A stretch of 64,000 nucleotides of DNA from Candidatus Poribacteria bacterium (lineage in GTDB: Bacteria; Poribacteria; WGA-4E; WGA-3G). Positions 1,516 to 37,249 of this stretch are shown in pieces. Within the stretch, counting starts at the first letter, position 1, and every line of letters starts with the position of its first letter. The notes below the pieces were generated by a model. That model made no database searches and was not told where the DNA came from. It worked only from the letters and a program-made list of their open reading frames with translations. Location: contig CBDBFU010000020.1 in the NCBI GenBank assembly GCA_965205025.1, positions 96,001-160,000 of the forward strand, given 5' to 3'. Position numbers and translations under genes: made by a program.

Positions 1516-1692
1516 TTATTATCACGAGTTGTGCTAAATAGCTTTCAGCAACCAATTGTTTCACATAAATAAAGGTTGTATGAATATCTTTCATTAGTTG
1601 AGACGTTCTTTAGTCCCGTAGGGACGAAATGTCTATAAATGACATTCATACCCGGGGAATGCCATAAGGCATTCATACCCGGGGAATGACTA

Positions 1693-2933
1693 ATGAAGAT
1701 TAATTTTTTAATTCGGTAATAATCCGATCTGGCGTAGCAGCATCTGTGATCCTCCTATGAACTGCGACATAAAACTAATCACCTTGTCTTTCACGATTTC
1801 CCAATCATCGCAATGACGATGGTTATGTAAAACCGATTGACGCACCCATCGCCATAACTTTTCAATCGGGTTCGTCCACGGCGCATAAGTCGGTAGTTGT
1901 ATTATCTCAATCGGAAGTTTTTGTAGTGTTCCGATTTTCTCTGAGGGTTTACCTGTCCAATTCGGTGGCTTCGGTTTCACAAACGATGCTGTTTGCGGGA
2001 GAAGTGCTTCCAATAAGTTAGCTTGAAAGTGGGTTGACCAATTGTCTTGTATCAAATATATCCGTTGCTTGTTTGCGTAGCGTTGGCAAATCTCGGTGTA
2101 AAAAGAATGAAGTGCTTCAGCAGTGCAGCGTGAAACTTGCTGGTAAACAACATCTCCAGTATGTGGGTTCAGAGCCCCGATCCCATAGCACGTTTGGTTG
2201 TGTCTGTAGCTCTGACGGGCTAAAGGTGTTTTCGTGCCTGTTTGTGCCCAGTCTTTTGCTATGGTAGGGTTGCGATAAAACGAGAACTCATCTTGGTAAA
2301 GCGCAACACAGGTCTGTGGATGTTGACGGGTCTCTTCCAAAACTTGCTGGACCCTGTCTATTTTTTGGGCATAGTCTGTATCCGGACTATGTATGTATAA
2401 GCGAGCGCGTTTATAGCTGAGACCGAGTCGACTAAGGATTTTGTGAATACCCGGCACAGACACATCACTGAGCCAAGGGACGATGTTTCCAAGGGATCGG
2501 AGTGTCCATCGTGTTTGATGCGGATTATGTTGTTCAGGTCCCTGTGCGATAGTATTATAGACCTCCGCCTCTGCTTCTTCGGGGGATTTAGGGGAATAAG
2601 CAGGTTTGCGACCACGACCGGGTGTATAGAATAAACCTTGAATACCGTTTTCATTGTATCGGTGAAGCCACGAATAGACCGTATCAGGATCGCGTTCTTT
2701 CAAGAGCATTTTTCGGGCGACTTTGTGAGGGGAAAACCCCTCGCTTATTTTCAAAAAGGCAGCAGCGCGTTCTCGTAGATAAGCCGGTTCGCCTTTATCA
2801 CGGAGTTCAACGAGTTTTTGTCGTTCAGTTTCACTGAGTTCAAGTTTATGATGTTTTGCCATGAATAAATACCTCCTTGAACAAGAGGATAGCACAAAAA
2901 TAAAATTTACCGAATTAAAAAATTAATCTTCAT
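1693..2933 (-). mobile_element. IS630-family insertion sequence (type A)
   Basis: Perfect 27-bp terminal inverted repeats ATGAAGATTAATTTTTTAATTCGGTAA enclosing a transposase gene. Confidence 0.9.
1708..2862 (-). CDS. IS630 family transposase (HTH + DDE)
   Basis: YQDE, IQDN and LPTYAPWTNPIEKLW motifs; start MAKHHK at 2862 preceded by AGGAGGT. Confidence 0.9.
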   Translation of the reverse strand: MAKHHKLELSETERQKLVELRDKGEPAYLRERAAAFLKISEGFSPHKVARKMLLKERDPDTVYSWLHRYNENGIQGLFYTPGRGRKPAYSPKSPEEAEAEVYNTIAQGPEQHNPHQTRWTLRSLGNIVPWLSDVSVPGIHKILSRLGLSYKRARLYIHSPDTDYAQKIDRVQQVLEETRQHPQTCVALYQDEFSFYRNPTIAKDWAQTGTKTPLARQSYRHNQTCYGIGALNPHTGDVVYQQVSRCTAEALHSFYTEICQRYANKQRIYLIQDNWSTHFQANLLEALLPQTASFVKPKPPNWTGKPSEKIGTLQKLPIEIIQLPTYAPWTNPIEKLWRWVRQSVLHNHRHCDDWEIVKDKVISFMSQFIGGSQMLLRQIGLLPN

Positions 2934-3568
2934 ATGTCATTCATACCGTTGATTCCTTGATTCCTTGATTCCGCGCATTCGGCGTTGATTTGGGGAACGA
3001 CTTAATGTCGTTCATACCCGGGGAATGTCTAAATGACATTCATGCCGTTGATTCCTTGATTCCGGGATTCCGGGATTCCTTGATTTCTTAATTCCCTTAG
3101 ACTCCGATCCTCGATTCATCCATTTCTTCTGTGGGCGGGGAATGCCTAAATGGCATTCATACCCGACGAATGCCCGGTGAATGCCTAAATGGCATTCATA
3201 CCCGGGGAATGCCATAAGGCATTCATACCGTTGATTCCGGGATTCCGCGCATTCGGCGTTGATTTGGGGAATGTCTAAATGACATTCATACCCGGGGAAT
3301 GCCATAAGGCATTCATACCGTTGATTCCGGGATTCCGGGATTCCGGGATTCCGGGATTCCGGGATTCCGAATCCCCGATCTTCTCCACTTCTGTAGGATG
3401 TAATTCCGACCCCCGAACTTCTCCTCTTCTCTTCTGTAGGATGTAATTCCGACCCCCGATCTTAACTACAAACGTATCGTGATACGAAGAACATACCTTC
3501 CAGCACGTTAATGCCAAAAACTTTATACACCCAAAGACAATTTAGTATTCTTCAATAGGTTATATATG

Positions 3569-4109: not shown

Positions 4110-4793
4110 ATGGGAACCGGCAGCGAAGAAACGCTACGTCTGCTTATGAAGAAGTATTATGAACCGATCCGTGCTTCCGTTACCAAGATCATAGGAAACC
4201 GTGAAGATGCCGATGAAATTACGAGTGAAACCTTCTTCAAAGCCTTCAATAAGAGAAATACGATTAAGGACCCTGAGAGACTCGTGGGGTGGTTATACAC
4301 CACAGCGAGAAATGCTGCGTTTGACCGAATAAGAGACAGACAACAAAAGGTTAATCAGATGCATGAATTCGTCTCTCTTTATAATGTGGATGGTGAAAGA
4401 GAAGCATCCATGCTTGCAGCACAGCAGGCACAACAGACTGAGGCAGAACATTATCTGTTGAAACGTCTCCTGCGGCTACTACCAGAAAAGGACCTTCAGG
4501 TTGTTGAATACCTATTAGATGACCTAAAGCCGAAGCAGATTGCAGAACTGATAGGTTCCACTGCCGAGGCTGTTCAGAAAAGATGGGAGCGGATACTCAA
4601 ATGGTTACGTCTGATTGCGCAACAATTAGATGAACTAATCAGCGATCTTCCATCTCAAGAACAGAAGATTATGGAACGGTATTTAGACAATCAACCTCTC
4701 AAAGAGATAAGTGAAAAATTAGGTATGTCTCCGAATGACATTGAAGTGCGCGTGAAACGTGTGATAAAGCGGTGGAAGAAGACCGTAACGTAA
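4110..4793 (+). CDS. ECF-type RNA polymerase sigma factor with two tandem sigma4 domains
   Basis: sigma2 (DADEITSETFFKAF, WLYTTARNAAFDRIR) plus two HTH modules (LPEKD...QIAELIG; LPSQE...EISEKLGMS); true start may be ~4080 after GGAGGAG. Confidence 0.85.
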   Translation: MGTGSEETLRLLMKKYYEPIRASVTKIIGNREDADEITSETFFKAFNKRNTIKDPERLVGWLYTTARNAAFDRIRDRQQKVNQMHEFVSLYNVDGEREASMLAAQQAQQTEAEHYLLKRLLRLLPEKDLQVVEYLLDDLKPKQIAELIGSTAEAVQKRWERILKWLRLIAQQLDELISDLPSQEQKIMERYLDNQPLKEISEKLGMSPNDIEVRVKRVIKRWKKTVT

Positions 4794-5241
4794 AACGCCA
4801 CTACAAAGTTAAGCGTGAGAGTAATTGATTTATTTTATTTTGATAAATTACGGGAGAAATGATACAATTTGCAAAATACTACCATGAGAATGAGAGAAAA
4901 CAAACACGATTCGGATGGTATTTCCAAATTGCATTTTTTCCTTCAACTAACACTGACTTCCAACACGGAAATTAGAAAGGAGTAAAGGAAATGACAGATG
5001 TTTTACAATACTTTCACATATAATCTGAGTTTTAGTTGAATGGTTGCAGAGTGAATAAAATTGATTGCTCAGAGAAGTTCCGAGATTTCAGGATTAAAAT
5101 AACTTCAGGTTTTTACTGAAGCCATTTTTAATTTACGGTCTTCTGACCCCATGTCATCTCGTCAATTTTAACTTTACGTTACTGCATGTTTGCACGCTGA
5201 TCGCGTGTAGATAAAACTATAACTCTATAAAGGAGAATATT

Positions 5242-6057: not shown

Positions 6058-6221
6058 AAGAAATATTTAAAATTAAGAAAGCAACTGCTTTTTTGGCTGT
6101 TAGTATATTTATTTTAACGCATATCTGTTTATTAACTTCTGTTATAGCAGAATGTGGTATAGACAGTTATGAAAAATTAGAAGAGGCTAAAAAGGAATTA
6201 GATCGGTTGAAAACCGTGTAA
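6058..6221 (+). pseudogene. Truncated paralogue of secreted protein 7956..8492
   Basis: Reads KIKKATAFLAVSIFILTHICLLTSVIAECGIDSYEKLEEAKKELDRLKTV*; no intact start. Confidence 0.7.
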
Positions 6222-6331: not shown

Positions 6332-6627
6332 ATGCAATTACCTCCTTACCTTCGGAAAATCCTTGTCTGTGTCCTGCTTTTATACCTCATGTTTCTCACT
6401 TTTGTGATACGTAACCAAGGTGTAGAACATCTCTCCGCTGGACACTTTACAGAAAACGATGCTTTCCTTTATTAGTGGATGGCGGAGAAAATTGTAGAAA
6501 ACAGCATCCTCCCGCCCCGTGATACACATCGCTGGCTTCCCCTCGTCAGATAACGCTCAACTGTTACCACTCTATTCTTATGCCATTGCCTATATCCATA
6601 ACACATTGGCGTGGATCTTTCCTGCAC
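6332..6627 (+). pseudogene. 5' remnant of an STT3-like gene (paralogue of 15663..)
   Basis: MQLPPYLRKILVCVLLLYLMFLTF...FTENDAFLY then stop; breaks off at a family-C element end at ~6628. Confidence 0.75.
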
Positions 6628-7005
6628 TATAAGCGTCAATTTAAGCATTAGACTCTTGGTAGGAAGGGATTCCAATCCCCGATCTTTTCCTCTTCTGTGG
6701 GCGGGGAATGCCTAAATGGCATTCATACCGTTGATTCCTGGATTCCAATCCCCGATCTTAACTACAAACGTATCGTGATACGAAGAACATACCTTCCAGT
6801 GCGTTAATGCCAACAACTTTATACACCCAAAGACAATTTAGTATTCTTCGATAGGTTATATATGTATATAAAGGCAAATTCTTATGTTCCTTAAGGTCAT
6901 TTATAAAGTTAATAATACAATGATCTTTATGGCTTAAAATTAATTTTATGTCGGAATTCTTCCCAATTCTACGTCAGGTTAAATAAAGGCAGTGATGTTT
7001 TCACT

Positions 7006-7085
7006 TGCCGAGGCTGTTAAGAAAAGATAGGAACGGATACTTAAGTGGTTACGTCCGATTGCGCAACAATTAGATGAACTAATCA
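7006..7085 (+). pseudogene. Internal fragment of the ECF sigma gene (cassette copy 2)
   Basis: DNA matches ~4562-4642. Confidence 0.7.
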
Positions 7086-7166
7086 GTAATTTTAACTTTA
7101 CATTACTGCATGTTTTGCGCGCTGATCGCGTGTAGATAAAACTATAACTCTATAAAGGAGAATATT

Positions 7167-7952
7167 ATGTGGTATAAAATGAGTTGGGGACTTGGTGTTC
7201 TCGCAGTTGTTCTGCTTATAGGTTTCTCTATGCTTGTTATTCCCGCACAGATGGAACTTAAGGAGATGCGTGAGGAAGCAAAAGCAAATGAGAAAATGTT
7301 ACAAGGTGAAAGAAAACATGACCATGAACATTATCAGGCTGATAATGAAACACACGTTGGAATCTCGGATTTAAAACAGGTTACGGAAACAGCTGTGAAA
7401 CCGGACAATCCAGTTAATATAAATGAGAATGACAACGTGACTGAAACTACGGAAACGGTTGGTGTTGGCACCGGTGCTAATGGCGAAGTTTTTCGATTTA
7501 AAGATGGTATCTATAAAGGTATGACCTATCCTGAAGCACTGAAGTTTTGGCAAAAACGTGTAAGTGATGCAGAGAAAGAATATAATGATGTCCTTGGTAC
7601 ATACAACGGCATAAAAGAGGCTTTATTCAACGCAAGTCATTCAGGAATGGCGATTTTAGTCGGAAGTCTTAGAAAATTACCCTCTAATGTGTATGAGCAA
7701 GCAATGGATCGGTTTTTTAAAAATGATCCGAACGGTCGTGAAAAATTTGAAGCATATATGAACGAAGTTGAGAAACATGCTTATTCAGGATCCTTAGCGG
7801 ATCAGGTATCAAGGTTTGAGAATGAGAAAGAGTATCGGCAAATGCTTAGAGTTTCATGGGATGAATTACGCCCTGAAAGGGATAGGCTTCGGGCTGAATA
7901 TATGAAAATTTATCTTGAAGCGCACCCGCTTAGAGGAATAAGGAGGAATTAA
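7167..7952 (+). CDS. N-terminally membrane-anchored hypothetical protein (cassette copy 2)
   Basis: Duplicate of 5242..6048; carries NET, NVT and NAS sequons. Confidence 0.8.
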   Translation: MWYKMSWGLGVLAVVLLIGFSMLVIPAQMELKEMREEAKANEKMLQGERKHDHEHYQADNETHVGISDLKQVTETAVKPDNPVNINENDNVTETTETVGVGTGANGEVFRFKDGIYKGMTYPEALKFWQKRVSDAEKEYNDVLGTYNGIKEALFNASHSGMAILVGSLRKLPSNVYEQAMDRFFKNDPNGREKFEAYMNEVEKHAYSGSLADQVSRFENEKEYRQMLRVSWDELRPERDRLRAEYMKIYLEAHPLRGIRRN

Positions 7953-7955
7953 AAA

Positions 7956-8492
7956 TTGAAATTATTGTTTAAAATTAAGAAGGTAACTGCTTTTTTTGTT
8001 GTTAGTATATTTATTTTAACGCATATCTGTTTCTTATCTTCTGCTATAGCAGATTGCGGTATAGACACTTATAAGCAATTAGTAGAGGCTACAAACGAAC
8101 TAAGTAAGTTGGAAAACACAGATCTTCCAATCGCTCAAAATAATTTGGACCTAGCAGAGGCCGCCTTTCTTGACTTTACAGAGCGAATAAAATACTATTA
8201 TATTGTTGGTATATTAGGCGGCGGTATAATTAGTGGTCCGGGGGGCATCGTACTTGGAGCAGCGGGTGCAACAATTATGACTGGTATGGAAGCAACTCAG
8301 CTCATGGAAAATATTAATAATGCCCGGGACAGGCTTAAGGAAGTGAATGCTCAGATAAAGACGCTTAAGAAACTATTAAAAACATTTGATGAAACTCATG
8401 GTTTCGATGATACCATTAACAACCCTGATTTCTATGACGATGATGGTGGTGCTAATAATGACGGCGGTTGTAATGACGGCGCCTATGCTTAA
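7956..8492 (+). CDS. Secreted helical protein with a glycine-rich hydrophobic core and an acidic C-terminal GGAxxGGC tail
   Basis: Signal peptide (..SSAIA/DCG), coiled-coil arms, GILGGGIISGPGGIVLGAAGA, tail DDDGGANNDGGCNDGAYA. Confidence 0.75.
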   Translation: MKLLFKIKKVTAFFVVSIFILTHICFLSSAIADCGIDTYKQLVEATNELSKLENTDLPIAQNNLDLAEAAFLDFTERIKYYYIVGILGGGIISGPGGIVLGAAGATIMTGMEATQLMENINNARDRLKEVNAQIKTLKKLLKTFDETHGFDDTINNPDFYDDDGGANNDGGCNDGAYA

Positions 8493-8501
8493 TTTTGATA
8501 T

Positions 8502-8541
8502 TGTGGTTCCTACACTTTTTGTGCAGGAACCACATTTTTTT
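8502..8541 (+). terminator. Intrinsic terminator-like hairpin after the secreted-protein gene
   Basis: TGTGGTTCCTACAC-TTTTT-GTGCAGGAACCACA followed by T7. Confidence 0.7.
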
Positions 8542-8549
8542 GTGAAAGA

Positions 8550-11013
8550 ATGAAAGATAAAATAACCATCTTATTATTAGTTATTATTTTATTTTTGACT
8601 TTTTGGATTCGTGTTCAGGGCGTTGAACGGATTCCAGCGGGTCAATTTACGGAGAACGATGCGTATACGTATTATTGGCAATCGGGTATTATAGCAGAGC
8701 AGGGTAGGTTACCAGTCCGTGATATGTCTCGTTGGTTGCCAGTGGGCCGTGATAATGGTCAGTTGTTTTCGTTTTATGCCTATGCGTTAGGGTATTTGTC
8801 CAAACTTTTTCCGTGGGTGTCGCGATATACCATTCAGATTTATCTTCCTGTCTTTTGCTTCACTTTGATTGTAGGGCTTATTTTTGTGTTCTTTTGGCGT
8901 ACTGACGGTGAGTTATTTACGTTGATTGTAGGGGTGGTGCTTGCGACATTGCCTGGAAGTATTAGTCGGAGTGCAGTCGGGTTTGGTGATAGGGATACGT
9001 GGTGTTATCTGTTTGGTGCTCTTGCTATTTTTGGATATCTATTTAAAGAGCGTATGGAAGTAGGTATTCATAGAACAATTGTGAATTGTTTGTGTGGGTT
9101 GGTAGTATTTATTGGCGGTCTTTCTTGGGAGGCGTTTGGTGTATTTGTTTTAGTTATTGTGTCTTTGGAAATATGGAAGTTTTGTCGTGAGGAAGGAATT
9201 GAGAGTTATAGTGAGTACTTAATATGGGTGCTAATGTTTGTTCCTGGATTACTGCTTATCAGTCCAGCATATAGAAACGGTTACGGTTTTTCTGCACATG
9301 TGGGCGCGTTATTGATATTTCCTGTTTTGACGGTCTTAGTGATACGTGTTATTCGCCAGTTGTGTTTTAAATATGTAAAGGTTGTTCGTTTACATAAGAA
9401 AAAACTTGTTTGGGGTCTAACTTTATTTTCGTTTTTGCTTGGGATAGGGTATATCGTTCTTCAATCAGGAAGTTTTGCATCGACAGTTTTTTCTTTTCAA
9501 GAGAGTCGTTTGATGCAAAATGTAGGTGAGTTACAGGATCCGCATTTTAGGTATTGGTATTGGCGGTACGGATCTATCTATATTTTAGGGAGTATTGGTT
9601 TTATTGTTTGTTCCGTTATTCTATGGGGTCGTTTTGGTGTTGTACTCGCGGCATCTGTTTTATTATTTGTGTTGACGACATTCTTTCGGTGGCCTGTAAG
9701 TGATGTTATTGGTGAGAATATTTGTGATGTTCTATTCATGGTTTCATTGTGTTTAACAGGAATTAGTGTCGGTATTGCTTCTTTGCGAGAATCACAAAAA
9801 AAAGAGGTATATGTTGTATTGGCGATGTTGATGTGGTTTGTAATATGGGTATCATTTGCGCGTGGTGGCAAACGGTTTGACTTCTTTATAGGTTTGCCAC
9901 TTGCGTATGGAACCGCATGGCTTTTGTATTCATCACCCGTGTATGTTATAGAGAAGTTAAAAGAAATTGGAGTGATTTATAGGGAACGTCTTAATGGTAT
10001 GCACGTAGCTGTTGTATTTTCTATTGTCGTATTAGTGCCAGTGTTATTTGTAGATGTATTGGGAGGGCATGTTAATCGTTCTGTTCATGCTTCGGCAGAG
10101 ATGAAAAAACCTATTCCTGGTGTGAATGATGTTGCAGAGGCGTTTGAATGGATCAAAGAGAATTTGAATGAAAATGTTGTGATGGCAGCAAATTGGCCAC
10201 ATGGAACGCAGCTGAATGTGCTTGGGAATGTAAAAACGGTTGTAGATTCGGATCATTATCTGCCACATTGGATACATTTGTACTATAGACATGTGTTTTG
10301 TGCTCAGGATCCGTATGAAGCGTTAAGTTTTTTGAAAACACATAATGCAACCCATTTGATGATGACCGAGTGGGAGGTGATTTCTCGTTCACATGTATAT
10401 TCTTATATTGGTAGTAATGCGGATAATGATAGACGATTTCGGTTACACAAGTTTGTTCGGGTTGATGGACCTATCGGTGAACCCTATCAGTTAGAACCTG
10501 AATCTGATCGAATGCCAATAGCATTTATTGATTTTGTTTCCAAAACAGGAACACGTGAACCTGGAACACACGGACCTGTTGAAATTGGCAAGCAACAGAA
10601 GTTAGGATTTACGATTCACTTGAAAACAGATGAGAACTTAACAGGGGACCTGGCTATTACGTTTGGAAAAGAGTCTATCCGTACAGTGAGTATGGGCAGT
10701 AGTGGGTTAGTGTTTTACTTTGATCGTAATGGTGTCCTAAAACAGGGGTATTTATTGTCCTCTCGTGGGTGGGAAAGTCTGGCAATAGAACTATTTTTGA
10801 GAAATAAAGCATGAGGAGTTTTTTATTCCGATGTATCCTATGGAGAACTTTAAAACAAGTGATGTAAAGATATGGAAAATTAATTATCCTGACTCTATTA
10901 AAGCGGATCCGAAATATCTTGTGACTGCTCCTGTGAATTCTGAAACAGATGACAATTCTCATGTTCCAAATGACCATTCCCATGATATAGATGAGCATTC
11001 GCATGAACACTAA
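8550..11013 (+). CDS. STT3/PglB/AglB-like oligosaccharyltransferase; one frameshift at ~10808
   Basis: Many TM helices; FTENDAY, SRSAVGFGDRD, VGELQ and MAANWPHG (WWDYG position); removing one A joins ELFLRNK to HEEFFIPMYP...KIWKINYP. Confidence 0.75.
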
Positions 11014-11722
11014 TAAGAATTTTATATCAATAGTCATGCCTTGTTTGAATGAGGAGGAGACACTTGGTATTTGTATTGAAAAAACACAATCTACTTTGAA
11101 AATGTTAGAATTTTTCGGAGAAGTAATTGTATCTGATAACGGTTCCACCGATGCCTCTGTAGAAATTGCTGAACGTCTCGGTGCGCGCGTAGTGCATCAA
11201 CCTACACGCGGCTACGGTGCCGCCTATCTTGCAGGCTTCGCCGCCGCACAAGGACAATACATCGTCATGGGAGACTCCGATGATACATACGATTTCACAG
11301 ATTTAGAAAGGTTTATCACCCCGCTTCAAAACGGTTACGATCTTGTCATCGGAAATCGGTTCAAAGGGACAATCCTTCCAGGTGCAATGCCATGGGCAAG
11401 ACGCTACATCGGCAATCCCGTTTTATCTGGTATGCTGCGTGTCCTTTTTGGTACATATATTTCAGATTCACACTGTGGGATGCGATCATTCACTGCCGAG
11501 GCATATAAACGGATGGATTTGAAAACAACAGGTATGGAATTCGCCTCTGAAATGGTCATCAAGGCAATACAGACCGAGTTGAAAATACTTGAAATTCCCA
11601 TCACCTATCATCCCCGTGGCGGCGAGTCTAAACTCAATGCCATACGGGACGCCCTCCGACATCTACGCTTTATGTTCCAATATAAACTGACATCTGCCAA
11701 AAAACATGCACGCGACAAATGA
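10991..11722 (+). CDS. GT2 glycosyltransferase, DPM1-like polyprenol-phosphate glycosyltransferase
   Basis: SIVMPCLNEE, VSDNGSTD, RGYGAA, MGDSDDTYD, ISDSHCGMR, GMEFASEM; probable start 11003. Confidence 0.9.
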   Translation: MSIRMNTNKNFISIVMPCLNEEETLGICIEKTQSTLKMLEFFGEVIVSDNGSTDASVEIAERLGARVVHQPTRGYGAAYLAGFAAAQGQYIVMGDSDDTYDFTDLERFITPLQNGYDLVIGNRFKGTILPGAMPWARRYIGNPVLSGMLRVLFGTYISDSHCGMRSFTAEAYKRMDLKTTGMEFASEMVIKAIQTELKILEIPITYHPRGGESKLNAIRDALRHLRFMFQYKLTSAKKHARDK

Positions 11723-12281
11723 ACTGCCAAAAATACCGAAGAAACTGATAGATAGACTTCTTGAATACTTACGATTTAAGACGGCAAAAAGGTATATCTA
11801 CAGAGACAGTCGGGTTTTAGACGTTGGCACTGGAGATGGCACATTCCTACAATATCTCAATGGACACATAAGTTCAGGAACCGGCATTGATCCACTTTTC
11901 ACACACGCTATACATTTTGAGAATTACACTCTCTGCCCAGGTGTGTTCCCGCACGATTTTTATACCGAAGAACAATTTGATGTTATCACACTCCTTGCTG
12001 TCGTAGAACATATCCCTGAAACCGAACTACAGCATGTAGCAGAAGCCTGCTATAATTATCTCACGCCAAAAGGACGTATCATCATCACTGTCCCACACCC
12101 CTTTGCTGATAAGATACTCAATATATTGAAGGCTCTTAGAGTGATAAATGGACTATCGCTTGAACAACATTATGGGTTCAATCCCGAACAATTGACCGAT
12201 ATTTTCAACAAGTGGAAACTGATCAAAAAAGAAAGGTGGGAGCTCGGATTGAATTATCTGTTTATCTTTGAAAAATATTAG
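11706..12281 (+). CDS. Class I SAM-dependent methyltransferase
   Basis: VLDVGTGDG, FDVITLLAVVEHI, LTPKGRIIITVP. Confidence 0.9.
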   Translation: MHATNELPKIPKKLIDRLLEYLRFKTAKRYIYRDSRVLDVGTGDGTFLQYLNGHISSGTGIDPLFTHAIHFENYTLCPGVFPHDFYTEEQFDVITLLAVVEHIPETELQHVAEACYNYLTPKGRIIITVPHPFADKILNILKALRVINGLSLEQHYGFNPEQLTDIFNKWKLIKKERWELGLNYLFIFEKY

Positions 12282-12669
12282 ACAGAATCAATTCAACGAT
12301 AATAAAAACGATCCGACTGATTAACAATAGGTGTCAATTTAGTACGGATATATTTGATACAAGACAATTGGTCTACCCACTTTCAAGCGAACTTATTGGA
12401 AGCACTTCTCCAGCAAACAGTGTCGTTTGTGAAGCCCGGGGAATGCCATAAGGCATTCATACCGTTGATTTCTTGATTTCTTGATTCCTTTAGATTCCGA
12501 TCCTCAATTCTTACATTTCTTCTGTATGAGGGATTCCAATCCCCGATCTTCTCCTCTTCTGTGGGAGGGGATTCCAATCCCCGATCTTAACTACAAACGT
12601 ATCGTGATACGAAGAACATACCTTCCAGTGCGTTAATGCCAACAACTTTATACACCCAAAGACAATTTA

Positions 12670-13575
12670 TAGTAAACTTTAGAATTAATGATACATGTTT
12701 ATAACTTCATCAATGGTTATATCAGCATTGTATTCTCTGAGACGTTTGATATTCGCAAAGTCGTGTTCAATCGGGTTGTAGTCCGGTGAATAAGGTGGTA
12801 AAAACAATACCTCTGCTCCCGATGCTTCTATCAACTCACGCGTCCGAAGCGTCTTGTGGATCTTCGCATTATCAAGAACAACCACGTCTGAGACAGACAG
12901 CCGTGGACATAAATAGGCTTCAAGCCACGCATTGAAACACGCAGAATCGCAGCTTCCATCAAACAAACAAGGTGCCGTAAAAGTCGAACCGATACGCGCT
13001 GCGACCAGCGTCGTTGTTCGTGTTCTTGTGCCTGAGATCAAACCTAAGACACATTCACCTTTCGGGGCATAGCCATGACGCCTATAACTTTCAGCACGAA
13101 AAACCGCATTCATCAACATAAACTATCTTTTTACCAGCGGCGTGTTTCTCGGTGAGTGTCTGACGGTAGCCCCTACGTTTCTCATCGCACCGCTCCTTAT
13201 ATCCGATTGTTTTTTTTTCGTGTGATGCCGAGTTTCCGCAACCCATAGGCTATAGAAGACTCTGAAACACCGAAATGTGAGGCGCGTTCGTTTTGCGTCA
13301 AGTCTGGGAAATCAGCGACATGTTTTTTCAGTGCTGCCTCGTCAAGCACTCTCATGCTTTTGGGCCCCGGTTTTTGGGTCGAAAGCGGGTCTTCAGCGGC
13401 TAACCATCTATAAATCGTTGAACGATTCAGAGAAAAACGACGGGCAGCTTCGGCTTTTTTCCCGCCAGCTTCAATAAAATCTAAAACGCGTTTGCGTAAA
13501 TCTGTTGAATATGCCATAATAGACACATTCTACTACAAAATACAAAAAATGTCTCTTTAATTCTGATAGTCACTA
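12670..13575 (-). mobile_element. IS630-family element type B, copy 1 (two ORFs, A9 slippery site; extra +1 in orfB)
   Basis: Ends TAGTAAACTTTAGAATTAA / TTAATTCTGATAGTCACTA; TA duplication confirmed by the empty site GACAATTTAGTATTC at ~3536 and ~6832; MAYSTDLR HTH, VDE, LDNA, LPPYSPDYNPIE. Confidence 0.9.
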
Positions 13576-13748
13576 TAGTATTCTTCGGTAGGTTATATAT
13601 GTATTAAAGGTAAATTCCAATGTTCCTTAAGGCCATTTATAAAGTTAATAATACAATGATTTTTATGGCTTAAAAATTAATTTTATGTCGGAATTCTTCC
13701 CAAATCTACGTCATGCTCAATAAAGGCAGTGATGTTTTCACTTAAGCA

Positions 13749-13836
13749 GATAATTGAAAAATTAGGTATCTCCCCGCATAACATTGAAGTGTGCGTGAGA
13801 CGTGTGATAAAGCGGTGGAAGAAAACCGTAACGTAA
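13749..13836 (+). pseudogene. 3' fragment of the ECF sigma gene (cassette copy 3)
   Basis: DNA matches ~4706-4793 (EKLG.SP..IEV.V.RVIKRWKKTVT*). Confidence 0.75.
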
Positions 13837-14030
13837 AACGCCGCTACAAAAGTTAAGCGTGAGAGTAATTGATTTATTTTATTTTGATAAATTACGGGAG
13901 AAATGATACAATTTGCAAAATACTACCGCATGAATGAGGGTAAACAAGCACGATTCGGATAGTATTTCCAAATTGCATTTTCTCCTTCTACTCACATTGA
14001 CTTCCGACACGGAAGTTTGAAAGGAAGGAA

Positions 14031-14444
14031 ATGAAAATGACAAATACGATCAGGTTGCTAAAACTAAACACGAATTTGCTCAGCATGATAAGTCTCATTG
14101 TGCTGCTTACAATCATATTCCCAACAGTTTATTCGATTGCAATGCATGATTGCGACGAAGCAAGAGAGGATCTTGAGGCAGCTCATAGGACACTTCAAAA
14201 AGAAAGATCAGATTTACACATTGCGCAATTTTTGTATTCCGCTGCATTGCTAACCAGAAATCCAATTCTTATACATGTAGCGAGGGCTAACTTGGATAGA
14301 GCAGAAGAACAATTTGAGAAAGCGAAAAAAGATCATTTATTAAAATGGTTAGCTTACTTTAGTTGTATATACGACGATCATAGTGATGATGAAGGTGGAG
14401 CAGATGCCGGCGGTTGTGATAGTGGTGGGGATACTCCTGCCTAA
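14031..14444 (+). CDS. Secreted helical-hairpin protein with an acidic C-terminal GGAxxGGC tail
   Basis: Signal peptide (..VYSIA/MHDC), amphipathic helices, tail DDHSDDEGGADAGGCDSGGDTPA; AAGGAAGGA RBS. Confidence 0.75.
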   Translation: MKMTNTIRLLKLNTNLLSMISLIVLLTIIFPTVYSIAMHDCDEAREDLEAAHRTLQKERSDLHIAQFLYSAALLTRNPILIHVARANLDRAEEQFEKAKKDHLLKWLAYFSCIYDDHSDDEGGADAGGCDSGGDTPA

Positions 14445-14487: not shown

Positions 14488-14521
14488 TGATATGTTCTCT
14501 TTTTTGAAAGAGAACATATCA
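14488..14521 (+). terminator. Stem-loop after the secreted-protein gene
   Basis: TGATATGTTCTCTT...AAGAGAACATATCA. Confidence 0.55.
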
Positions 14522-14552: not shown

Positions 14553-15251
14553 ATGAAAACTCAACGAAACGTAACAGGACATATTGTGATAGGAACAATT
14601 TGCCTTGCAGTATTGGGTTGTGTAACATGGTACTTTGTTTTTTATCGATCTCAGTTAAACGTTGATCCAATAAAAAAGTATAACACTATTACCTTTACAC
14701 AAAAAGATTCTGTTGAAACATTTGAAAAATCTGTATCATCCGCATTGGATACTGCAGATACAGAAGGTATCAGGGATACTTTGAGTAAAGCTGAAACTGC
14801 TGTCAGGTCAAATTCCGAAAACTCCAGTAATGTAGTCTTTCCGGTTGATGAGAACCGAAAGATAAACTCCGAACAAGATGCACAGAAAAGCACAGCAGAC
14901 TCTACAAAAGATGCAGAAATTATGAGGATCCTGATGGAAGCAGAGAAGCTTCAAAAGTTGACAGATGACACCCTGGCACGACATAAACAATTCATGGAAA
15001 TTCTAGACACGGTACCTATCTCCCAACACCAAGGGAAATTACCTGAGAATGTAGTCGAAAATCTACTTAATCAACTTGTGCCCAATTTGGTTGAGGAATT
15101 GAACACACTTTCTGCAACAGAGCAACGCAAACTTATTACTCAGTTGCGCCCATTGATGAAAACAATGGTTGGCGCGCATACCCAGGAGTCCGATTCAGTC
15201 GATGTTCTCTTAAAAATGCTTCATGCACATGGGTTTGAACCGAAGTTTTGA
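14553..15251 (+). CDS. N-terminally membrane-anchored hypothetical protein
   Basis: AGGAG RBS, single TM helix, Ser/Thr-rich linker, helical C-domain. Confidence 0.75.
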   Translation: MKTQRNVTGHIVIGTICLAVLGCVTWYFVFYRSQLNVDPIKKYNTITFTQKDSVETFEKSVSSALDTADTEGIRDTLSKAETAVRSNSENSSNVVFPVDENRKINSEQDAQKSTADSTKDAEIMRILMEAEKLQKLTDDTLARHKQFMEILDTVPISQHQGKLPENVVENLLNQLVPNLVEELNTLSATEQRKLITQLRPLMKTMVGAHTQESDSVDVLLKMLHAHGFEPKF

Positions 15252-15268
15252 GAATGGAGAGTAACTTT

Positions 15269-15532
15269 ATGAAGGACAATTTCTTCGTATATGGCGTTGG
15301 CATCCTTGCAATCGTTGGTGTCCTCGTTTGCTTTATCGGATACGCAACAAATACGGCGTCTATGTACACACCAAAGCAGACAACTGCTATTACAACAACC
15401 GCTGGAAAGAAGAAAAACTGCAAATGCTGTTCAAAGCGGTTGGAACGCGTCAAAAAAGCTAATAAAGATTTACTTGAACGCAACCCTGTCTTGAAAAAAG
15501 CCTTAACTGCAATCGAACACGAGACACAATAG
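15269..15532 (+). CDS. Small membrane protein with a CxCC motif
   Basis: TM helix followed by KKKNCKCCSKR; GGAG upstream of MKDNFF. Confidence 0.6.
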   Translation: MKDNFFVYGVGILAIVGVLVCFIGYATNTASMYTPKQTTAITTTAGKKKNCKCCSKRLERVKKANKDLLERNPVLKKALTAIEHETQ

Positions 15533-15662: not shown

Positions 15663-18081
15663 ATGCAATTACCTCCTTATCTTCGCAAAATCCTTGTCTG
15701 TGTCCTACTTTTATACCTCATGTTTCTCACTTTTGGGATACGTATCCAAGGTGTAGAATATCTCCCAGCAGGACAATTTACAGAAAACGATGCTTTCCTT
15801 TATCAGTGGATGGCGGAGATAATTGCAGAAAACGGCACCCTTCCGCCACGCGATACACATCGCTGGCTTCCCCTCGGCAGAGATAACGGTCAATTGTTAC
15901 CACTCTATTCTTATGCCATCGCCTATACGCATAAAACGTTGGCATGGAATCTTCCCTACACTCACACGGTATCACATTCAACTCTACATCACCGCTATCT
16001 GTTTTACATTAGGGCTTGGCGTGCTTATGCCTTTTGCTTATCCGCACCCACGGGCTGCTATTTGCGTCCATCGTTAGCGCTGCTGTTGGCAACGTTACCG
16101 GGAAGTGTAGAGCGAAGTGCTGCTGGTTTTGGCGATCGCGATGCATGGTGCTGGATGTTTGGCGTACTCGCTGTCGCTGTTTACCTGTGGAAAGAACAAA
16201 TTCCATTAAACCCTTCTGTCATGAGGGAAAGAGGGGTTCCTGAAAAGGAAGGTAAGGGGATTAGTAATTGGCTTAGATATTTCGCTACCGCGCCTTGCTA
16301 GGATTTATCGTCTTCTTGGGTGGACTCTCATGGGAAAGTTTCGGGCTTTTTGTTTTAATTATTCTCTGTACAGAACTCTGGAAATTTTGCACTACAGAGA
16401 CAGAATCTCACCTAAAAGAGTACCTTATATGGATAGCTCATGTTCGTTCCGGGACTCTATCTCATCAGTCCTGCCTATCGGAGCGGATATACTTATGCAA
16501 CGCATCTGGCTGCGCTAACACTTGCCCCACCAATTGCAGTTTTTATCATGCGTGGACTGAGATACCTACTGCTTGAAGTATTACCCATCGCTACGTCTGC
16601 ATGCACGGAAACTCGCGGGAGGACTCACCTTGTTCGGCATCGGAATAGGAATTGGTTATATTCTGCTGCAATCCGGTACATTCGAGAATACCGCGTTCAT
16701 CTTCCGAGAAAACCGACTCATGAAGGACATGACAGAACTTGCTGATCCAAATTTCGGATATTGGCCCAGCCCGGTACGGCACCGTCTTTATGTTAGGTAG
16801 TCTCGGCTTGATACTTGGGAGTCTTGTACCTCTGGAAGCAGCGCGGGATTCCTGTTGCCATAGCGCTTTCACTTTTCACCGCAACAACATTTTTCCGATG
16901 GCCCCTGAGTGAGTTGGTTGGAGGAGGAAGCTGCGATATACTCTTTCTCGTTTCACTGGGACTCACGGCTATCACTCTCGCAATTGCATGTTTGCGAAAA
17001 GAAACAGCGAAAAATGAATTGGTAACGGTTATAATGGTTTGTATGGTTTGTTTTGTGGGTGGCACTTTCACGTGGTGCAAAACGTTATGATTTCTTCATA
17101 GGTGTACCTCTTGCATACGGCACCGCATGGCTCTTGTGGCAGTTGCCGGCAACACTCACACAACAATTCAAAAAACCGCAGTGGATACCCGTTACAATTG
17201 CAATTGCCGTTTTAATACCTGTCCTGTTTTGGACTCCTTTCGGTGGGCATGCAAACAGAGCTGTTCCTTCCGCCGCTTACTGGCGAAAACCGCTTCCCGG
17301 AACAGGAGATATCGCGCAAGCACTCAACTGGATAAAAACATCGCTTCCACAAGATACAGTCATGGCAGCAAACTGGAGTTATGGCAGCAGACTTAACGTC
17401 TTCGGTGGTGTCAAAACCATCACCGATCAGGATACGTTTCTCCCACACTGGATACACCTCTATTACCGACATGTCTACTGTGCACAAGACGTACGAGAAG
17501 CACTTGAATTCCTCAAAACCCACGGTGCTACGCATCTCATGCTCAGAGAGTGGGGATTGATTGACCGTGCCTTTACCTATTCTTATATCGGCAGCGATGA
17601 AATCGGTGATAAAAGATTCGGATTTACCCGCCTTGTTCAACTTGGATACAAACATCTCTCAAAGATAGAACAAACGCCTTTTCTGTACGTTGAAGAACCT
17701 GATATCGCATCACCACCTGATTTCATAACAGCACGTTTGAAAGAGGGAGGGATTGCGCGGCTCCCGTATGTGGCGTTCAAAGGTAGCAAACGCCATATCC
17801 ACAAAACTGCACTTGACGAAAATCCATACGGAAACATCATCCTTTATTACGATGAAGATGGTGCACTTGAAAAGGCGTACCACATTTCTAATCTCGGCTG
17901 GCAAAGCCTTGCTGTCCGTCTCTATTTTCTCGAGGACTTCTCCAACATCTTTGCCCCTATCTATCCTACAAATGGTGAAGATACCGCTCCTCTTAAGATA
18001 TGGGAAATTCGTTATCCACCTGACATAAAAACCGATGACAAATATCTTGCTATGGAGCCAAACGAACAAGCCAAAGAATAG
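15663..18081 (+). pseudogene. Second STT3-like oligosaccharyltransferase with multiple frameshifts (real decay or assembly error)
   Basis: Fragments in different frames: FTENDAFLY, RSAAGFGDRDAW, LGGLSWESFG, MTELAD, RGAKRYDFF, MAANWSYG, HWIHLYYRHV, KIWEIRYP. Confidence 0.8.
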
Positions 18082-18687
18082 ATGGCAAACTCTATTACCC
18101 GATTTCTCAAAAACAGAAAGTTTCAACAAGGTGATCAGTATCCCAGAAAACCCCTGGATTCCTTCCTTGAATATCTGCGATTTACGAAAGTCGAACCGTA
18201 CATTCCGATAGGTGCGCGTCTTTTGGACGTTGGGACTGGAGACGGAAACTTTTTACGTTATCTCAATGATAGTCTACATACCGGTATAGGAATTGACTCA
18301 CATCTCACACAAACTGTAGAATTTGGGTCGTGTTGTCTTATGCCTGGATATTTTCCAAATGACTTCATTCGAGATGAAACCTTTGATGTTATCACGATGC
18401 TTGCAGTCGTAGAACACATCCCGATGCATGTTCTCCCCTCGGTTGCAGATGCTTGCTGGAAATATCTAAACCCAGAAGGACGACTCATTATTACAGTGCA
18501 ACACCCGCGTGTTGAGAAACTTCTTGACTTGCTAAAAGCACTAAAGATTGTTGAAGGATTCTCAATACATGAGCATTATGGATTCAATCCAGAGTGTCTA
18601 CCGGAGATTTTCACCCGATGGAAACTCGTGAAAAGGGAACGTTGGGGATTTGGAAATAATAATCTATTCATATTTGAAAAACCCTAA
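18082..18687 (+). CDS. Class I SAM-dependent methyltransferase (paralogue of 11706..12281)
   Basis: LLDVGTGDG, FDVITMLAVVEHIP, EHYGFNPE. Confidence 0.9.
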   Translation: MANSITRFLKNRKFQQGDQYPRKPLDSFLEYLRFTKVEPYIPIGARLLDVGTGDGNFLRYLNDSLHTGIGIDSHLTQTVEFGSCCLMPGYFPNDFIRDETFDVITMLAVVEHIPMHVLPSVADACWKYLNPEGRLIITVQHPRVEKLLDLLKALKIVEGFSIHEHYGFNPECLPEIFTRWKLVKRERWGFGNNNLFIFEKP

Positions 18688-18749: not shown

Positions 18750-19017
18750 TATAGTAGAATCCATAATTATTTGGATAGGGCGGTAGGTTCGGTTTCCCGG
18801 GGAATGCCATACGGCATTCATACCGTTGATTCACCGAACCTGTGTTCATCGTGCGGTTAGAAACCGCACCTACCAGGTGAGTGTAAACATATTTTGGAAT
18901 TTTACTATAAACTATAGTAAAGCTTAGAAATAAATACACACTTTCGCCCTCCCACGGTAGGCACGGTTTCTAACCGTGCTGGTGCAAAGTGTCTCATTAA
19001 TACTAAGATCCACCATA
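18750..19017. mobile_element. Two adjacent MITEs with IS630-B-like TATAGTA ends carrying GTAG REP hairpins
   Basis: 18750-18909 (TATAGTAGAATCCA...TGGAATTTTACTATA) and 18913-19017 (TATAGTAAAGCTTAG...CTAAGATCCACCATA). Confidence 0.6.
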
Positions 19018-26299: not shown

Positions 26300-26427
26300 T
26301 GTAAACCCATACTCTACTATAGTTAGGAGGGAATCTAATCCTCTCCTAACTATATTGCTTGAACTCACATTAAGATACCTACCTTTTATTGGTCCCATAT
26401 ACCCAGAGGAGTGCATCTATATATTCT

Positions 26428-27684
26428 ATGAACGAGAATAAATTTACCGTTTGGGAATTACCACAAGACGCAGTTACCCGTTTTGGACAGGGTTACCTAA
26501 ATGATTTTGCAGTCTCAACGGATGGAGCGTATTTGGCAATTGGTAGTTGGACAGGTGTGTGGTTATATGATCTTACGACACACACTCCTGTTGCCTTAAT
26601 GGAAACAGAACGAGGAATGGCCACCCGTATTGCACTCTGTTCAACACAACCCTGGTTAGCTGTGAAGAACTCTGACAAATATGGAAAAGAGGTGATAAAG
26701 GTATGGAATTGGCAAAAGTCTCAACGTATCGCTGTCATGGAATATCCTGAAAGGTTAAAGACTAATCCACCTGCAAATGACTTATGCAACCTTTGTTTTT
26801 CTGCTTCAGGAGAATGGCTATCCGTTAGTCGTTACTTTGATGATGTTGTTGACATCTGGGAATCAGAAACCGGCAAGCTGTATGCTGAGCTGCAATTAAC
26901 TTCTGAGGAAACGAAGGCACGCTGCTTTGACAGTGAAATCCATTATCATGATCTCAGCGGCGCGTTAGCGTTTTCACAGCACAATGGTTTCTTTGCATTT
27001 TCCCCCAATTCTCCTTTTATCACTGTATGGGATATCACAACCTGTAAACGTATCATCAATCTGACGGGAGATCCCGATGGTGTCTACTCGCTTAGTTTTC
27101 GCCCTGTGGGCAATTCCTTGCTGTTGGAGGAATGAATGGGACTGTGCAAGTGTCGTTACAGAACCGAGTTGTCATATCGTTGCCGTTTATTCGGATACCG
27201 CGGCTGGAAAATTTTATGCAACTGGGTTTCCTCCGGGAGAATCTGAATATTGGAGTAACACGCTGAATCTGTGGGAAATCGGAAAAGGAAAACCAATAAC
27301 CGAATTAACAATCCCTGGAGAATTACCTCATCGACGTTCAATGGCATACTCCCCTACTACAAATCTGCTTGCATGTGGGCATGGAACTGATGCTAAGGAT
27401 TGGGATGAAGATGATCCTGAAAACGGGGCAGTCTATGTATGGAATGTCGCACATGGACAGATGCAGTATGTATTTAGAGGCAAACATGTCAATAGCATCA
27501 ACTATGTAAGGTTCAGTCCAGATGGAACACGTCTTATTAGTAGAGATACAGACTGGGTAGTTCGATTGTGGGATGTACAGATATTCAATGCATTGCATTT
27601 TCACCAGATAGCAGGATCTTAGCAAGTGGCAGTTTCGATGGTACCATCCTTTTGTGGGATATGAAGCCCTATATCAATTCTTAA
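26428..27684 (+). pseudogene. WD40-repeat protein 1, frameshifted and internally deleted
   Basis: WELPQDAVTRFGQG start; frame changes at ~27100, 27150 and 27600; ends LASGSFDGTILLWDMKPYINS. Confidence 0.75.
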
Positions 27685-27823
27685 ACATTCTTTATCAATT
27701 TCATTTATCGCATATCATATCAATACCGGTTGCGTTGCACAACTCTATCAGTCAATTTCGCGTAACATTTCGTAGTGCGAAGTTACCGATCCTCGCGTGC
27801 CAAATAACAATAAAGGAGCATTA

Positions 27824-29818: not shown

Positions 29819-29915
29819 ACATTCCTCGTCAATTCTCTTGGTTAAATTCGCAATACCTATCAACATGCAAGATTAACGAATCTCACCATCCATTAGAGAT
29901 AAAGGAGACATCTTT

Positions 29916-31955: not shown

Positions 31956-32029
31956 TTTATGTATATCAGGTTAATCCAAAATTTTCTTTACTGTTCAAAC
32001 AAACTGTTGCAATTGCTGAGGAGATTATT

Positions 32030-34093: not shown

Positions 34094-34234
34094 AGATTTC
34101 TTGTCAATTCATTTATAGCATAGCATATCAATACCGGTTGCATTGCCCAACTTTATCAGTCAATTTCGCATAACATATTGTAGTGCGAAGTTACCGAGCT
34201 TCGCGTGCCATATAACAATAAGAGGAGATATATT

Positions 34235-37144: not shown

Positions 37145-37249
37145 ATTTCAGAAAATTCAATGATGTAATATCTCAGGCATTGCGAAAAAGTGAAGGTTTT
37201 GCGTGATCTACATTTCCTTCTCGCTATAATAAATAAGGAGACAACTTTG

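Follow-up and report, generated by a model that had tools for sequence, protein, structure and literature searches.

The DNA considered here is a window of 64,000 nucleotides (positions 96,001 to 160,000 of contig CBDBFU010000020.1, assembly GCA_965205025.1) from the genome of a Candidatus Poribacteria bacterium (5.66 Mb, 38% GC, 95.5% complete). Our subject is a pair of genes in this window, smallB and smallC, whose small secreted products an earlier note, made from the sequence alone, had described as polymorphic proteins with conserved ends. Both genes lie between positions 4100 and 18700, a region occupied by three partly decayed copies (A, B and C) of a single cassette, with the following features:

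4110..4793, + strand: ECF (extracytoplasmic function)-type sigma-70 factor, with Pfam Sigma70_r2 and r4_2 (two stretches) and TIGR02937
5242..6048, + strand: anchorA, with an N-terminal transmembrane (TM) helix, a polar linker and a helical domain; 94% identical to anchorB
6093..6221, + strand: truncated gene of the smallB type (the 'EC' remnant), 42 residues; 60% identity by tblastn to the smallB N-terminus
6332..6632, + strand: remnant of the 5' end of an STT3-like gene; 85% identity to the N-terminus of the cassette C copy
7167..7952, + strand: anchorB, a membrane-anchored helical protein and the partner gene of smallB; relatives in 16 of 176 genomes
7956..8492, + strand: smallB, with a signal peptide, AIA/DC, a helix, a glycine-zipper turn, a second helix and the tail DDDGGANNDGGCNDGAYA
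8502..8541, + strand: stem-loop (10 bp plus an inner stem) followed by U7, terminator-like by folding
8550..10814, + strand: divergent GT-C glycosyltransferase of predicted STT3/AglB/PglB fold, from fold and profile matches
10991..11722, + strand: GT2 glycosyltransferase, 243 residues, nearest to AglJ and dolichyl-phosphate hexose transferases (TIGR04182)
11706..12281, + strand: S-adenosylmethionine-dependent methyltransferase
12685..13526, - strand: IS630-family transposase (two open reading frames, ORFs), between cassettes B and C
13884..13912, + strand: sigma-70-like promoter match (TTGATA-17-TACAAT, with TG) in the conserved leader upstream of smallC; a copy lies at 4840-4868
14031..14444, + strand: smallC, a member of the hairpin family described below, with Cys41, Cys112 and the tail GGCDSGG
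14488..14521, + strand: perfect 15-bp stem-loop, by folding, between smallC and the anchor gene
14553..15251, + strand: p232, an anchor protein with a TM helix, an acidic linker, a helical domain bearing LNxLSxxEQ and the C-terminus HGFEPKF
15248..15532, + strand: p94, a small single-TM protein with a KKNCKCC (CxCC) motif; opens the conserved right flank
15663..18081, + strand: cassette C STT3-like gene, split into three or more ORFs
18082..18687, + strand: cassette C methyltransferase, with 56% identity to that of cassette B

Copy A retains an intact sigma gene, anchorA, the truncated small gene and a stub of the STT3-like gene. Copy B consists of a scrap of the sigma gene 3' end (about 6993-7093), anchorB, smallB, an intact STT3-like gene, the GT2 gene and a methyltransferase gene, and copy C of another such scrap (13741-13850), smallC, p232, p94, the broken STT3-like gene and its own methyltransferase gene. 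The sigma gene at 4110-4793 is the sole intact one among the three copies, and its product carries a second region-4-like stretch as a C-terminal extension. AnchorA and anchorB are tandem duplicates. The match of the GT2 protein to TIGR04182 (E 5.7e-44) falls under the curated cut-off.

SmallB comprises 178 residues (TTG start), with ...SSAIA/DCGID... in its N-terminal region and DDDGGANNDGGCNDGAYA at its C-terminus. SmallC, of 137 residues, reads ...YSIAMHDCDEA... and ends in DDEGGADAGGCDSGGDTPA, while the remnant at 6093-6221 reads ...SVIAECGID. The ORF positions, signal peptides, (D/E)C starts and acidic Gly/Cys tails reported earlier are thus all present in the window sequence, and neither mature smallB nor smallC contains an N-x-S/T sequon. 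In mature smallB the only Cys residues are 34 and 172, and the glycine-zipper turn is SGPGG at 93-97. The mature chains are dissimilar, as had been claimed: BLASTP matched the two proteins in two stretches only, the signal region with E 2e-4 and the tail with E 0.002 (10 of 18 residues). When all six frames of the complete 5.66-Mb genome were scanned (ORFs of at least 40 residues), the acidic-GG..GGC tail turned up in smallB and smallC only. For the two window proteins, the description 'polymorphic with conserved ends' is supported.

The strong stem-loop that had been noticed after each gene follows both full-length genes. The one at 8502-8534, succeeded by U7, folds with -20.4 kcal/mol (z-score -5.6), and the segment with the 15-bp hairpin at 14488-14521 has a z-score of -4.1; no stem-loop was found downstream of the remnant at 6093-6221 (z -0.1). 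The feature recurs behind 17 of 24 relatives, in which the 90 nucleotides 3' of the gene give z below -2 (median -3.5). These stem-loops are long and their sequences differ from locus to locus, an arrangement that fits expression of the small gene above its downstream genes.

SmallC belongs to a family. Three relatives were returned by a word-indexed homologue search, and a profile search found relatives in 31 of the 176 genomes of the phylum, including 27 of the 111 of its own family. A 26-member profile, searched against a library of 1.84 billion proteins, gave 117 clusters (50% identity) when E values up to 0.001 were admitted, and 75 with a limit of 1e-10. Two members bear the public name 'hypothetical protein [Candidatus Poribacteria bacterium]'. 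Pfam gave nothing for smallC and, across the family, five different weak families in one member each; NCBIfam gave nothing for either window protein. We aligned 114 of the 117 hits, leaving out two of more than 400 residues and P0003, and 86 representatives cover both of the Cys columns discussed below. The family N-terminus is well conserved (MTNTLTW..KPIQLPKLNTNLLSVISLIVL) and leads to an AxA-type site, with the first Cys (Cys1) 0-8 residues after it. As for the N-terminal 'DC' of the earlier note, the Cys itself is conserved, but the residue before it varies (D, H, A, P, W, G, V or N). At a locus in a distant genome (L036:10462-12141), a hairpin-like ORF with a weak match (E 0.002) precedes a GT-C gene of the PMT_2/ArnT type, not STT3-like.

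Two Cys residues are the constant element of the family, Cys1 being present in 83 of the 86 representatives and the second (Cys2) in 85. Between them lie two arms, typically of 34 and then 35 residues, joined by a turn, frequently (S/T)G(N)(P); the second arm ends in x(D/E)C, the Cys of which is Cys2. Arm lengths of 34/35 occur in 41 of 83 members, and in the others the two lengths shift jointly (27/28, 38/38, 41/42); the second arm exceeds the first by exactly one residue in 47 of 83, and the 24 genome-derived members give a like picture. The AlphaFold2 model of smallC, built on a 26-row alignment, has a mean pLDDT (predicted local distance difference test score) of 82.8 and consists of two helices, 42-75 and 78-119 (pLDDT about 98), in agreement with the helix-turn-helix form proposed before. 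Because the turn falls at 76-77, Cys41 and Cys112 are placed symmetrically, 35.5 residues each from it. That a change in one arm is compensated in the other is the strongest indication that the two Cys have to come together. The tip of the hairpin is hydrophobic, and in some members so are both arms (tip hydropathy up to 2.1). A Foldseek comparison of the smallC model with the PDB gave generic helical hairpins only, none at E 0.001.

Beyond Cys2 comes the tail, a short linker and then C-x-S-G-x-C unit(s), sometimes in tandem (e.g., ...CDSGGCDSGGCDSGGCG). Among 83 tails, 41 have at least one C-x-S-G-x-C, 23 a single G-x-C, 16 no Cys at all and 3 some other arrangement. The pattern DD.GGA..GGC..G that had been put forward is real in both window ORFs; the family-wide motif is instead C-x-S-G-x-C. 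In the smallC model the tail (120-137) has a pLDDT of about 50 and appears disordered. The absence of tail Cys in 16 of 83 members means that it is dispensable for the fold. It is nonetheless kept at the protein level, though it lies in the middle of an island where DNA conservation vanishes (see below), and our data support the view that it is a conserved disordered appendage under selection.

SmallB stands apart from this family. In the word-indexed search it retrieved itself alone among 235 candidates; a search of the ESM Atlas gave no lead (best score 0.77), and smallB was absent from the listing of a family hidden Markov model (HMM) built without it. The larger family HMM gave it 13.6 bits, in the signal region only. 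In the genome G088, however, a gene of the anchorB type is directly followed by one for a 166-residue protein that matches smallB (BLASTP E 8e-9) and features AISH/C, a glycine-zipper turn of sequence PGPG, the motif WLYEC and a tail rich in Cys. In this group the anchor gene comes first and the hairpin gene second. Aligned to the smallC family profile with hhalign, smallB and its G088 relative scored probabilities of 6.8% and 1.8%, which is why we do not claim homology of the two groups; judged by its sequence, smallB is a second subfamily of the same design as the smallC family. Two secreted proteins encoded two genes upstream of other STT3-like genes (L044:4308-4814 and L045:4331-4867) have a C-terminal proline run and then up to nine NDGG repeats, which recall the NNDGG/CNDG units of the smallB tail.

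The gene order around smallC relatives is ECF sigma, hairpin, anchor (about 230-330 residues), often a p94-like CxCC protein, the STT3-like enzyme, and a methyltransferase and/or GT2; the sigma gene that precedes the hairpin gene is homologous throughout. When cassette C was compared with five relatives, the DNA proved 75-88% identical from the 3' end of the sigma gene through the leader and into the hairpin gene, for its first 5-13 codons. This left-flank identity runs to window positions 14044-14069, beyond which nothing was detectable in four of the five cassettes. It resumes at 15210-15219 in three of those four, about 40 nucleotides inside the end of the anchor gene, and at 15647 in the fourth, from there covering p94, the STT3-like gene and the methyltransferase gene; the fifth relative is alignable throughout (77%). 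Protein identities to the cassette of G099 follow the same course: 79% for sigma, 33% for the hairpin, 22% for the anchor, then 82% for p94, 91-92% for the STT3-like enzyme and 84% for the methyltransferase. The hairpin gene and the next gene form a hypervariable island within a conserved cassette. The anchors of the family share an N-terminal TM helix, a variable acidic linker, the motif LNxLSxEEQ and a terminal L(R/E)xxG(F/Y)(E/K)PKF. The anchors, too, are thus a family whose ends are conserved, and 'conserved ends' is a description that applies to the two-gene unit.

We modelled the complex between smallC residues 39-137 and p232 residues 112-232, with three runs and three controls. The runs scored 0.84, 0.57 and 0.81 (median 0.81), and the best of the three controls 0.00. 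Of 157 solved complexes 116 attain this mark, and of 215 mismatched pairs 2 do so, a calibration that is roughly valid here, given that we used our own alignments. Contact agreement between runs was at least 46% and the pLDDT of the partner at least 74. The predicted interface involves both hairpin arms (residues 45-113) and anchor residues 123-219. The model thus supports binding of the hairpin to the anchor, with the qualification that helical proteins pack easily, which makes such a prediction weaker.

A tight cognate complex of this kind, if the model is right, could also be expected of a bacteriocin-like, membrane-active hairpin and its immunity protein, exchanged between cassettes like polymorphic toxin modules. 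The pair does co-vary between conserved flanks, a variable mature chain stands behind a conserved signal peptide, the tips are hydrophobic or glycine-zipper and some members are hydrophobic on both arms, and the design resembles that of glycocins as described in PMC6405829. Apart from Sec, however, the cassette offers no route of export or release, and a lysis gene is missing from it. In many members the helices are amphipathic and carry a high charge, unlike helices that insert into membranes, and the cassette lies on the chromosome, linked with a sigma factor and with genes for glycosylation. We regard a toxin-immunity pair as very unlikely.

The explanation we prefer, at roughly even odds (a probability of about 0.5), is that the hairpin is a Cys-clasped periplasmic protein held on its anchor, and that the two make up the swappable specificity unit of an envelope cassette whose conserved ends touch shared machinery. 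The proteins would be Sec-exported antiparallel two-helix hairpins of ~95 residues with a hydrophobic tip (a glycine zipper in smallB). The Cys after the signal cleavage site and the Cys at the end of helix 2 would meet at the open end of the hairpin and clasp it, through either a disulfide or a shared metal, leaving the disordered C-x-S-G-x-C tail to hang off the clasped end. Along both its helices, the hairpin would dock onto the periplasmic helical domain of the co-encoded anchor. The hairpin and anchor genes would then act as a swappable, hypervariable unit of specificity in a conserved cassette of ECF sigma factor, CxCC membrane protein, STT3-fold glycosyltransferase, methyltransferase and, sometimes, a GT2 of the polyprenyl-phosphate-hexose type. 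The variable cores would form a private hairpin-anchor interface, and contact with the conserved machinery would fall to the ends that stay constant, namely the signal peptide with the Cys pair, the Gly/Cys tail and, in the anchor, ...GFEPKF. The purpose may be to vary the envelope when phages or a host exert pressure, or to insulate paralogous cassettes from each other. Of this explanation, the architecture, the juxtaposed Cys pair, the island and the synteny are established by the data above; the docking is supported by a model, and how the clasp is held, what the tail does and what the unit is for are inferred.

Several observations weigh against this explanation. The number of tail Cys ranges from 0 to 8 without fixed parity, zero being the count in 16 of 83 members. 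SmallB lacks the second Cys and has no detectable membership in the smallC family. The STT3-like gene of cassette C is broken and cassettes A-C are partly decayed, so that smallC may sit in a dying copy. No cytoplasmic domain ties hairpin or anchor to the sigma factor, the N-terminal cytoplasmic stubs being about 10-20 residues; searches of Pfam and NCBIfam found no recognisable anti-sigma domain in the hairpin, the anchors, p94 or elsewhere in the cassette, and no family for hairpins, anchors or p94.

The thiol chemistry of the organism also counts against a disulfide clasp. In this 95.5%-complete genome we found no DsbA (PF01323, PF13462), DsbB, VKOR or Thioredoxin_4, by a search that gave matches in control genomes. 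There are sixteen Thioredoxin_2 matches, one with an in-frame TGA. The 660 exported-like proteins (a set from a crude classifier, unvalidated on a control genome) contain 0.47% Cys, vs 1.21% in the cytoplasmic-like ones, and they show no bias to even numbers (214 even, 279 odd). Such an even-Cys bias is said by Dutton and colleagues, writing in 2008, to mark disulfide-forming species. With no such bias and a Cys-poor exported set, a structural disulfide is not a safe assumption, and the clasp may instead be a metal site, or its thiols may be free. The hairpins, with typically four Cys per about 95 residues, are exceptional in this organism.

The same data could be read in another way, in which the Cys pair and a metallothionein-like (C-x-S-G-G)n tail form a periplasmic site for soft metals or oxidants and the hairpin-anchor pair serves as the sensor of the ECF sigma factor. 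The Cys content of the hairpins (about 4 per about 95 residues) against that of the exported-like set, the missing even bias and the missing DsbA/DsbB/VKOR all favour such a site, as do the variable, repeat-like number of tail Cys and the fact that the hairpin gene always lies behind an ECF sigma gene. Among generic hairpins there were weak fold matches to the periplasmic metal sensor CnrX, but these (E 0.4) are below significance. A sensor of a single ligand needs no hypervariability, the tail is missing in some members, hairpin, anchor and p94 have no recognisable anti-sigma domain, and the cytoplasmic stubs measure about 10 residues. We consider a metal or redox sensor unlikely.

For the neighbouring enzyme (8550-10814, 754 residues), no Pfam match was obtained at E 0.01, Pfam STT3 included. 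The archaeal STT3 model TIGR04154 matched with E 2.3e-13 (49 bits vs a cut-off of 450), and the yeast STT3 C-terminal domain matched around WWDYG with E 0.044 for the single sequence and 0.0017 for a 19-row profile. The AlphaFold2 model (pLDDT 76.9) shows a C-terminal periplasmic domain on a GT-C fold, and its 19 best Foldseek matches are all STT3/AglB/PglB catalytic subunits (E 1.5e-12 to 5.4e-7, TM-score 0.5-0.6), the next being a DPY19 C-mannosyltransferase. Identity to STT3/AglB/PglB is 13-15%. On sequence profiles and the predicted structure, the enzyme is a divergent GT-C glycosyltransferase of the STT3/AglB/PglB fold. Within its family, D147-R-D149 (D-x-D) and further acidic residues are invariant. 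At the WWDYG site the window enzyme has NWPHG, and 48 copies examined have (N/H)W-x-(Y/H)-G. In every one of the 11 hairpin-linked enzymes, the third residue of this site is G, S, A, P or N; in 14 of 37 others it is D/E (Fisher p 0.02, related genomes not being independent), a difference that may reflect co-variation of the enzyme with its type of partner.

Matches to this enzyme family occur in 119 of 176 genomes, including 98 of the 111 in the family of our organism, and a single genome has up to 11. At 40 STT3-like loci, sampled irrespective of hairpins, most upstream genes on the same strand encode large proteins of other kinds, and the N-terminus of many of these is hydrophobic. By a motif defined post hoc, ~7 of the 40 have tails that are Gly/Cys-rich or of the form (NDGG)n. 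The enrichment of such tails among upstream ORFs (8/202 vs 14/1293 others, p 0.006) depends on a loose post hoc motif and is descriptive only. An STT3-like gene lies downstream of 17 of 21 tail-bearing hairpin members. The link between tail and cassette proposed in the earlier note consequently holds in part: the tail is a feature of the hairpin family, but with ~7 of 40 other STT3-like loci having one and none at the third locus of this genome, it is not a trait of every such cassette.

The earlier note had suggested the tail as a possible glycan acceptor. In a sharper form of that idea, the tail would be the acceptor of the STT3-like enzyme, with a sugar on Ser or Cys and the hairpin as a dedicated substrate; the donor would be a polyprenyl-phosphate-(methyl)hexose made by the GT2 and the methyltransferase. 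The idea is compatible with the clasped, anchor-bound hairpin, and we entertain it as a possibility of modest likelihood. All solved structural relatives of the enzyme modify flexible peptides, and the tail is flexible, kept without DNA conservation and sometimes tandemly repeated. The WWDYG site, which reads the sequon, is altered in the enzyme, with no acidic third position in the 11 hairpin-linked copies, and 14 of 24 hairpins have no N-x-S/T. The two full-length members without tails, in G057 and G067, have no STT3-like gene nearby, and the whole G067 genome has no STT3-like match at E 1e-10. Pilins with TfpO/TfpM and glycocins offer precedents. Against these points, the smallB tail (CNDGAYA) contains no Ser, tail Cys are missing from 16 of 83 representatives, and the long disordered linkers of the anchors are equally good candidates. 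Upstream of most STT3-like genes in the phylum there is no hairpin of this kind (Gly/Cys-rich tails being found at the ~7 of 40 loci above), and the enzyme is nearby in 17 of 21 tailed vs 1 of 3 tail-less members, a difference with a Fisher p of 0.14. We also know of no STT3-family enzyme that modifies anything except Asn, which counts against the idea. In its fullest form, that a bacterial STT3 branch which lost the Asn-x-Ser/Thr-reading WWD glycosylates, on Cys or Ser, the Gly/Cys tail of a dedicated, hypervariable, thiol-clasped hairpin, and has expanded to numerous paralogues in a genome with a private substrate for each, the proposal is rather doubtful.

Other roles suggested for the tail and for the glycine-zipper hairpin fared less well. 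A lipid acceptor would need G, A or S at the -1 position of the lipobox, and just 5 of the 24 members show one of these. Known sorting tags are tripartite and include a hydrophobic helix, which the tail lacks. As for a filament former, the sole interaction supported by a model is the 1:1 bundle of hairpin and neighbouring anchor.

Some further observations concern the surroundings of the cassettes. In the p94 family, an invariant C-x-C-C follows a Thr/Pro-rich linker, and the protein has a helical end (...YGxEEGLRRLKxSDPE...); C-terminal modules of the p94 type also end some larger anchored proteins upstream of other STT3-like genes. Members of a short palindromic repeat family (...GGGGAATGCCATAAGGCATTCATACC...), together with longer shared segments, bracket each cassette copy, at window positions 1614-1706, 3002-3330, 6686-6737, 12420-12471 and 18781-18832. 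IS630 copies are found at 12685-13526 and 34975-35815, and a DDE_3 transposase at 1708-2895. Repeats and transposases probably drive the duplication and decay of the cassettes. Elsewhere in the window, ~10 genes for WD40-repeat proteins (up to 739 residues) stand in a row at 26389-41316, interrupted by an IS630 copy, and at 41368-43083 there is a helicase of the UvrD type into which a GIY-YIG nuclease domain has been inserted (residues 132-206). Contig C2 of the genome carries about 20 ECF sigma paralogues.

We compared the hairpins with the known kinds of protein that they might have been. Judged by sequence, they do not fit lipoproteins, whose lipobox [LVI][ASTVI][GAS]C calls for G, A or S before the Cys, the residue before Cys1 in 24 members being D in 8, H in 6, A in 4, P in 2, G in 1, and otherwise W, V or N. 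Nor do the tails, acidic and rich in Gly, Ser and Cys with no hydrophobic stretch, correspond to C-terminal sorting signals (LPXTG, PEP-CTERM, GlyGly-CTERM). N-termini of the form MTNTLTW..KPIQLPKLNTNLLSVISLIVL...AxA-C, and the lack of any pilin family among the Pfam results, set them apart from type IV pilins, and 14 of 24 members without N-x-S/T make the usual N-glycan acceptors a poor description. With respect to glycocins, the hairpin family has one conserved Cys pair, juxtaposed by the joint shifts in arm length, and no second nested one; its N-terminus is Sec-type with an AxA site, the cassette holds no transporter, and the GT2 of the cassette is nearest to AglJ and dolichyl-phosphate hexose transferases. 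Since lipoproteins, sorting-signal proteins and pilins do not fit the sequences and the leader, transporter and S-glycosyltransferase of glycocins have no counterpart here, we place the hairpins outside these known kinds. Within the library searched, the literature gave no description of the hairpin family, of the hairpin-anchor island or of an expansion of STT3-fold enzymes in Poribacteria, and for the hairpin family we found neither a family model nor a solved relative. The hairpins may be part of a new module for modification or recognition at the cell envelope.

STT3-type protein glycosylation is regarded as Asn-specific, and in bacteria as rare and single-copy. Here, in a phylum of sponge symbionts, there are many divergent STT3-fold paralogues, apparently paired with exported proteins of their own, and the hairpins are a recurrent partner of the enzyme that had gone unnoticed, with a flexible, conserved tail as the obvious candidate site of action. 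Relative to STT3/AglB/PglB systems, further differences are the number of paralogues per genome, each with its own upstream anchored protein, and an associated GT2 that resembles polyprenyl-monophosphate hexose synthases. Even if the tail is unmodified, the locus still offers a clean, swappable two-gene island of specificity with conserved recombination flanks; for hypervariable envelope modules in uncultivated symbionts, candidate functions are evasion of phage or host, self-recognition and signalling.

In being small, helical and periplasmic, encoded next to an envelope-stress-type sigma factor and provided with a predicted membrane-anchored partner, the hairpins are reminiscent of CpxP/Spy, CnrX and RseB. 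They have no sequence match or significant fold match to these, however, and the cassette has no anti-sigma domain. Hypervariability is not known as a feature of regulators of this type.

Type IV pilins are made with a class III signal peptide and have a conserved hydrophobic N-terminal helix, and pilin alleles occur as islands with accessory genes. According to PMC9829042, TfpO and TfpM glycosylate a C-terminal Ser/Thr just beyond the disulfide loop of the pilin, and the gene for the cognate pilin is found upstream of the one for the transferase. The parallel with PilA-TfpO and pilin-TfpM (PMC9829042) extends to a small, exported, variable protein with a hydrophobic helix, a transferase gene downstream, and a short loop bounded by Cys close to the C-terminus, after which come the few residues that in the pilin bear the glycan. 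The hairpins, in contrast, have no class III (prepilin) signal and are predicted to form a two-helix hairpin, not a pilin fold, and the enzyme, known here from its sequence and models, would have the STT3 fold rather than that of an oligosaccharyltransferase of the O-antigen-ligase type.

Glycocins are peptides of about 40 residues and their S-glycosyltransferases belong to the GT2 class. Their leader is cut and they are exported by a dedicated transporter after modification in the cytoplasm by a dedicated S-glycosyltransferase (PalS in the case of pallidocin, whose system comprises PalS and PalT), and they hold two nested disulfides. The hairpins differ in having arms of 34-35 residues, a Sec-type signal, one conserved Cys pair and, as the candidate enzyme, a GT-C protein that would face the periplasm. 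There are likenesses as well. According to PMC6405829, two helices of the glycocins are nested by two disulfides, sublancin 168, glycocin F and pallidocin being two-helix hairpins held by Cys pairs, a design that the hairpins may share; in the sublancin group the S-glucosylated Cys stands within a Gly-Cys-Gly-Gly/Ser motif that resembles the GGCDSG/GGCGSG units of the hairpin tails (PMC6405829). Were the tail indeed glycosylated, the cassette would represent a periplasmic, Sec-dependent counterpart of glycocin S-glycosylation or of pilin C-terminal glycosylation, and an enzyme family so far known for N-glycosylation only would gain a new acceptor chemistry.

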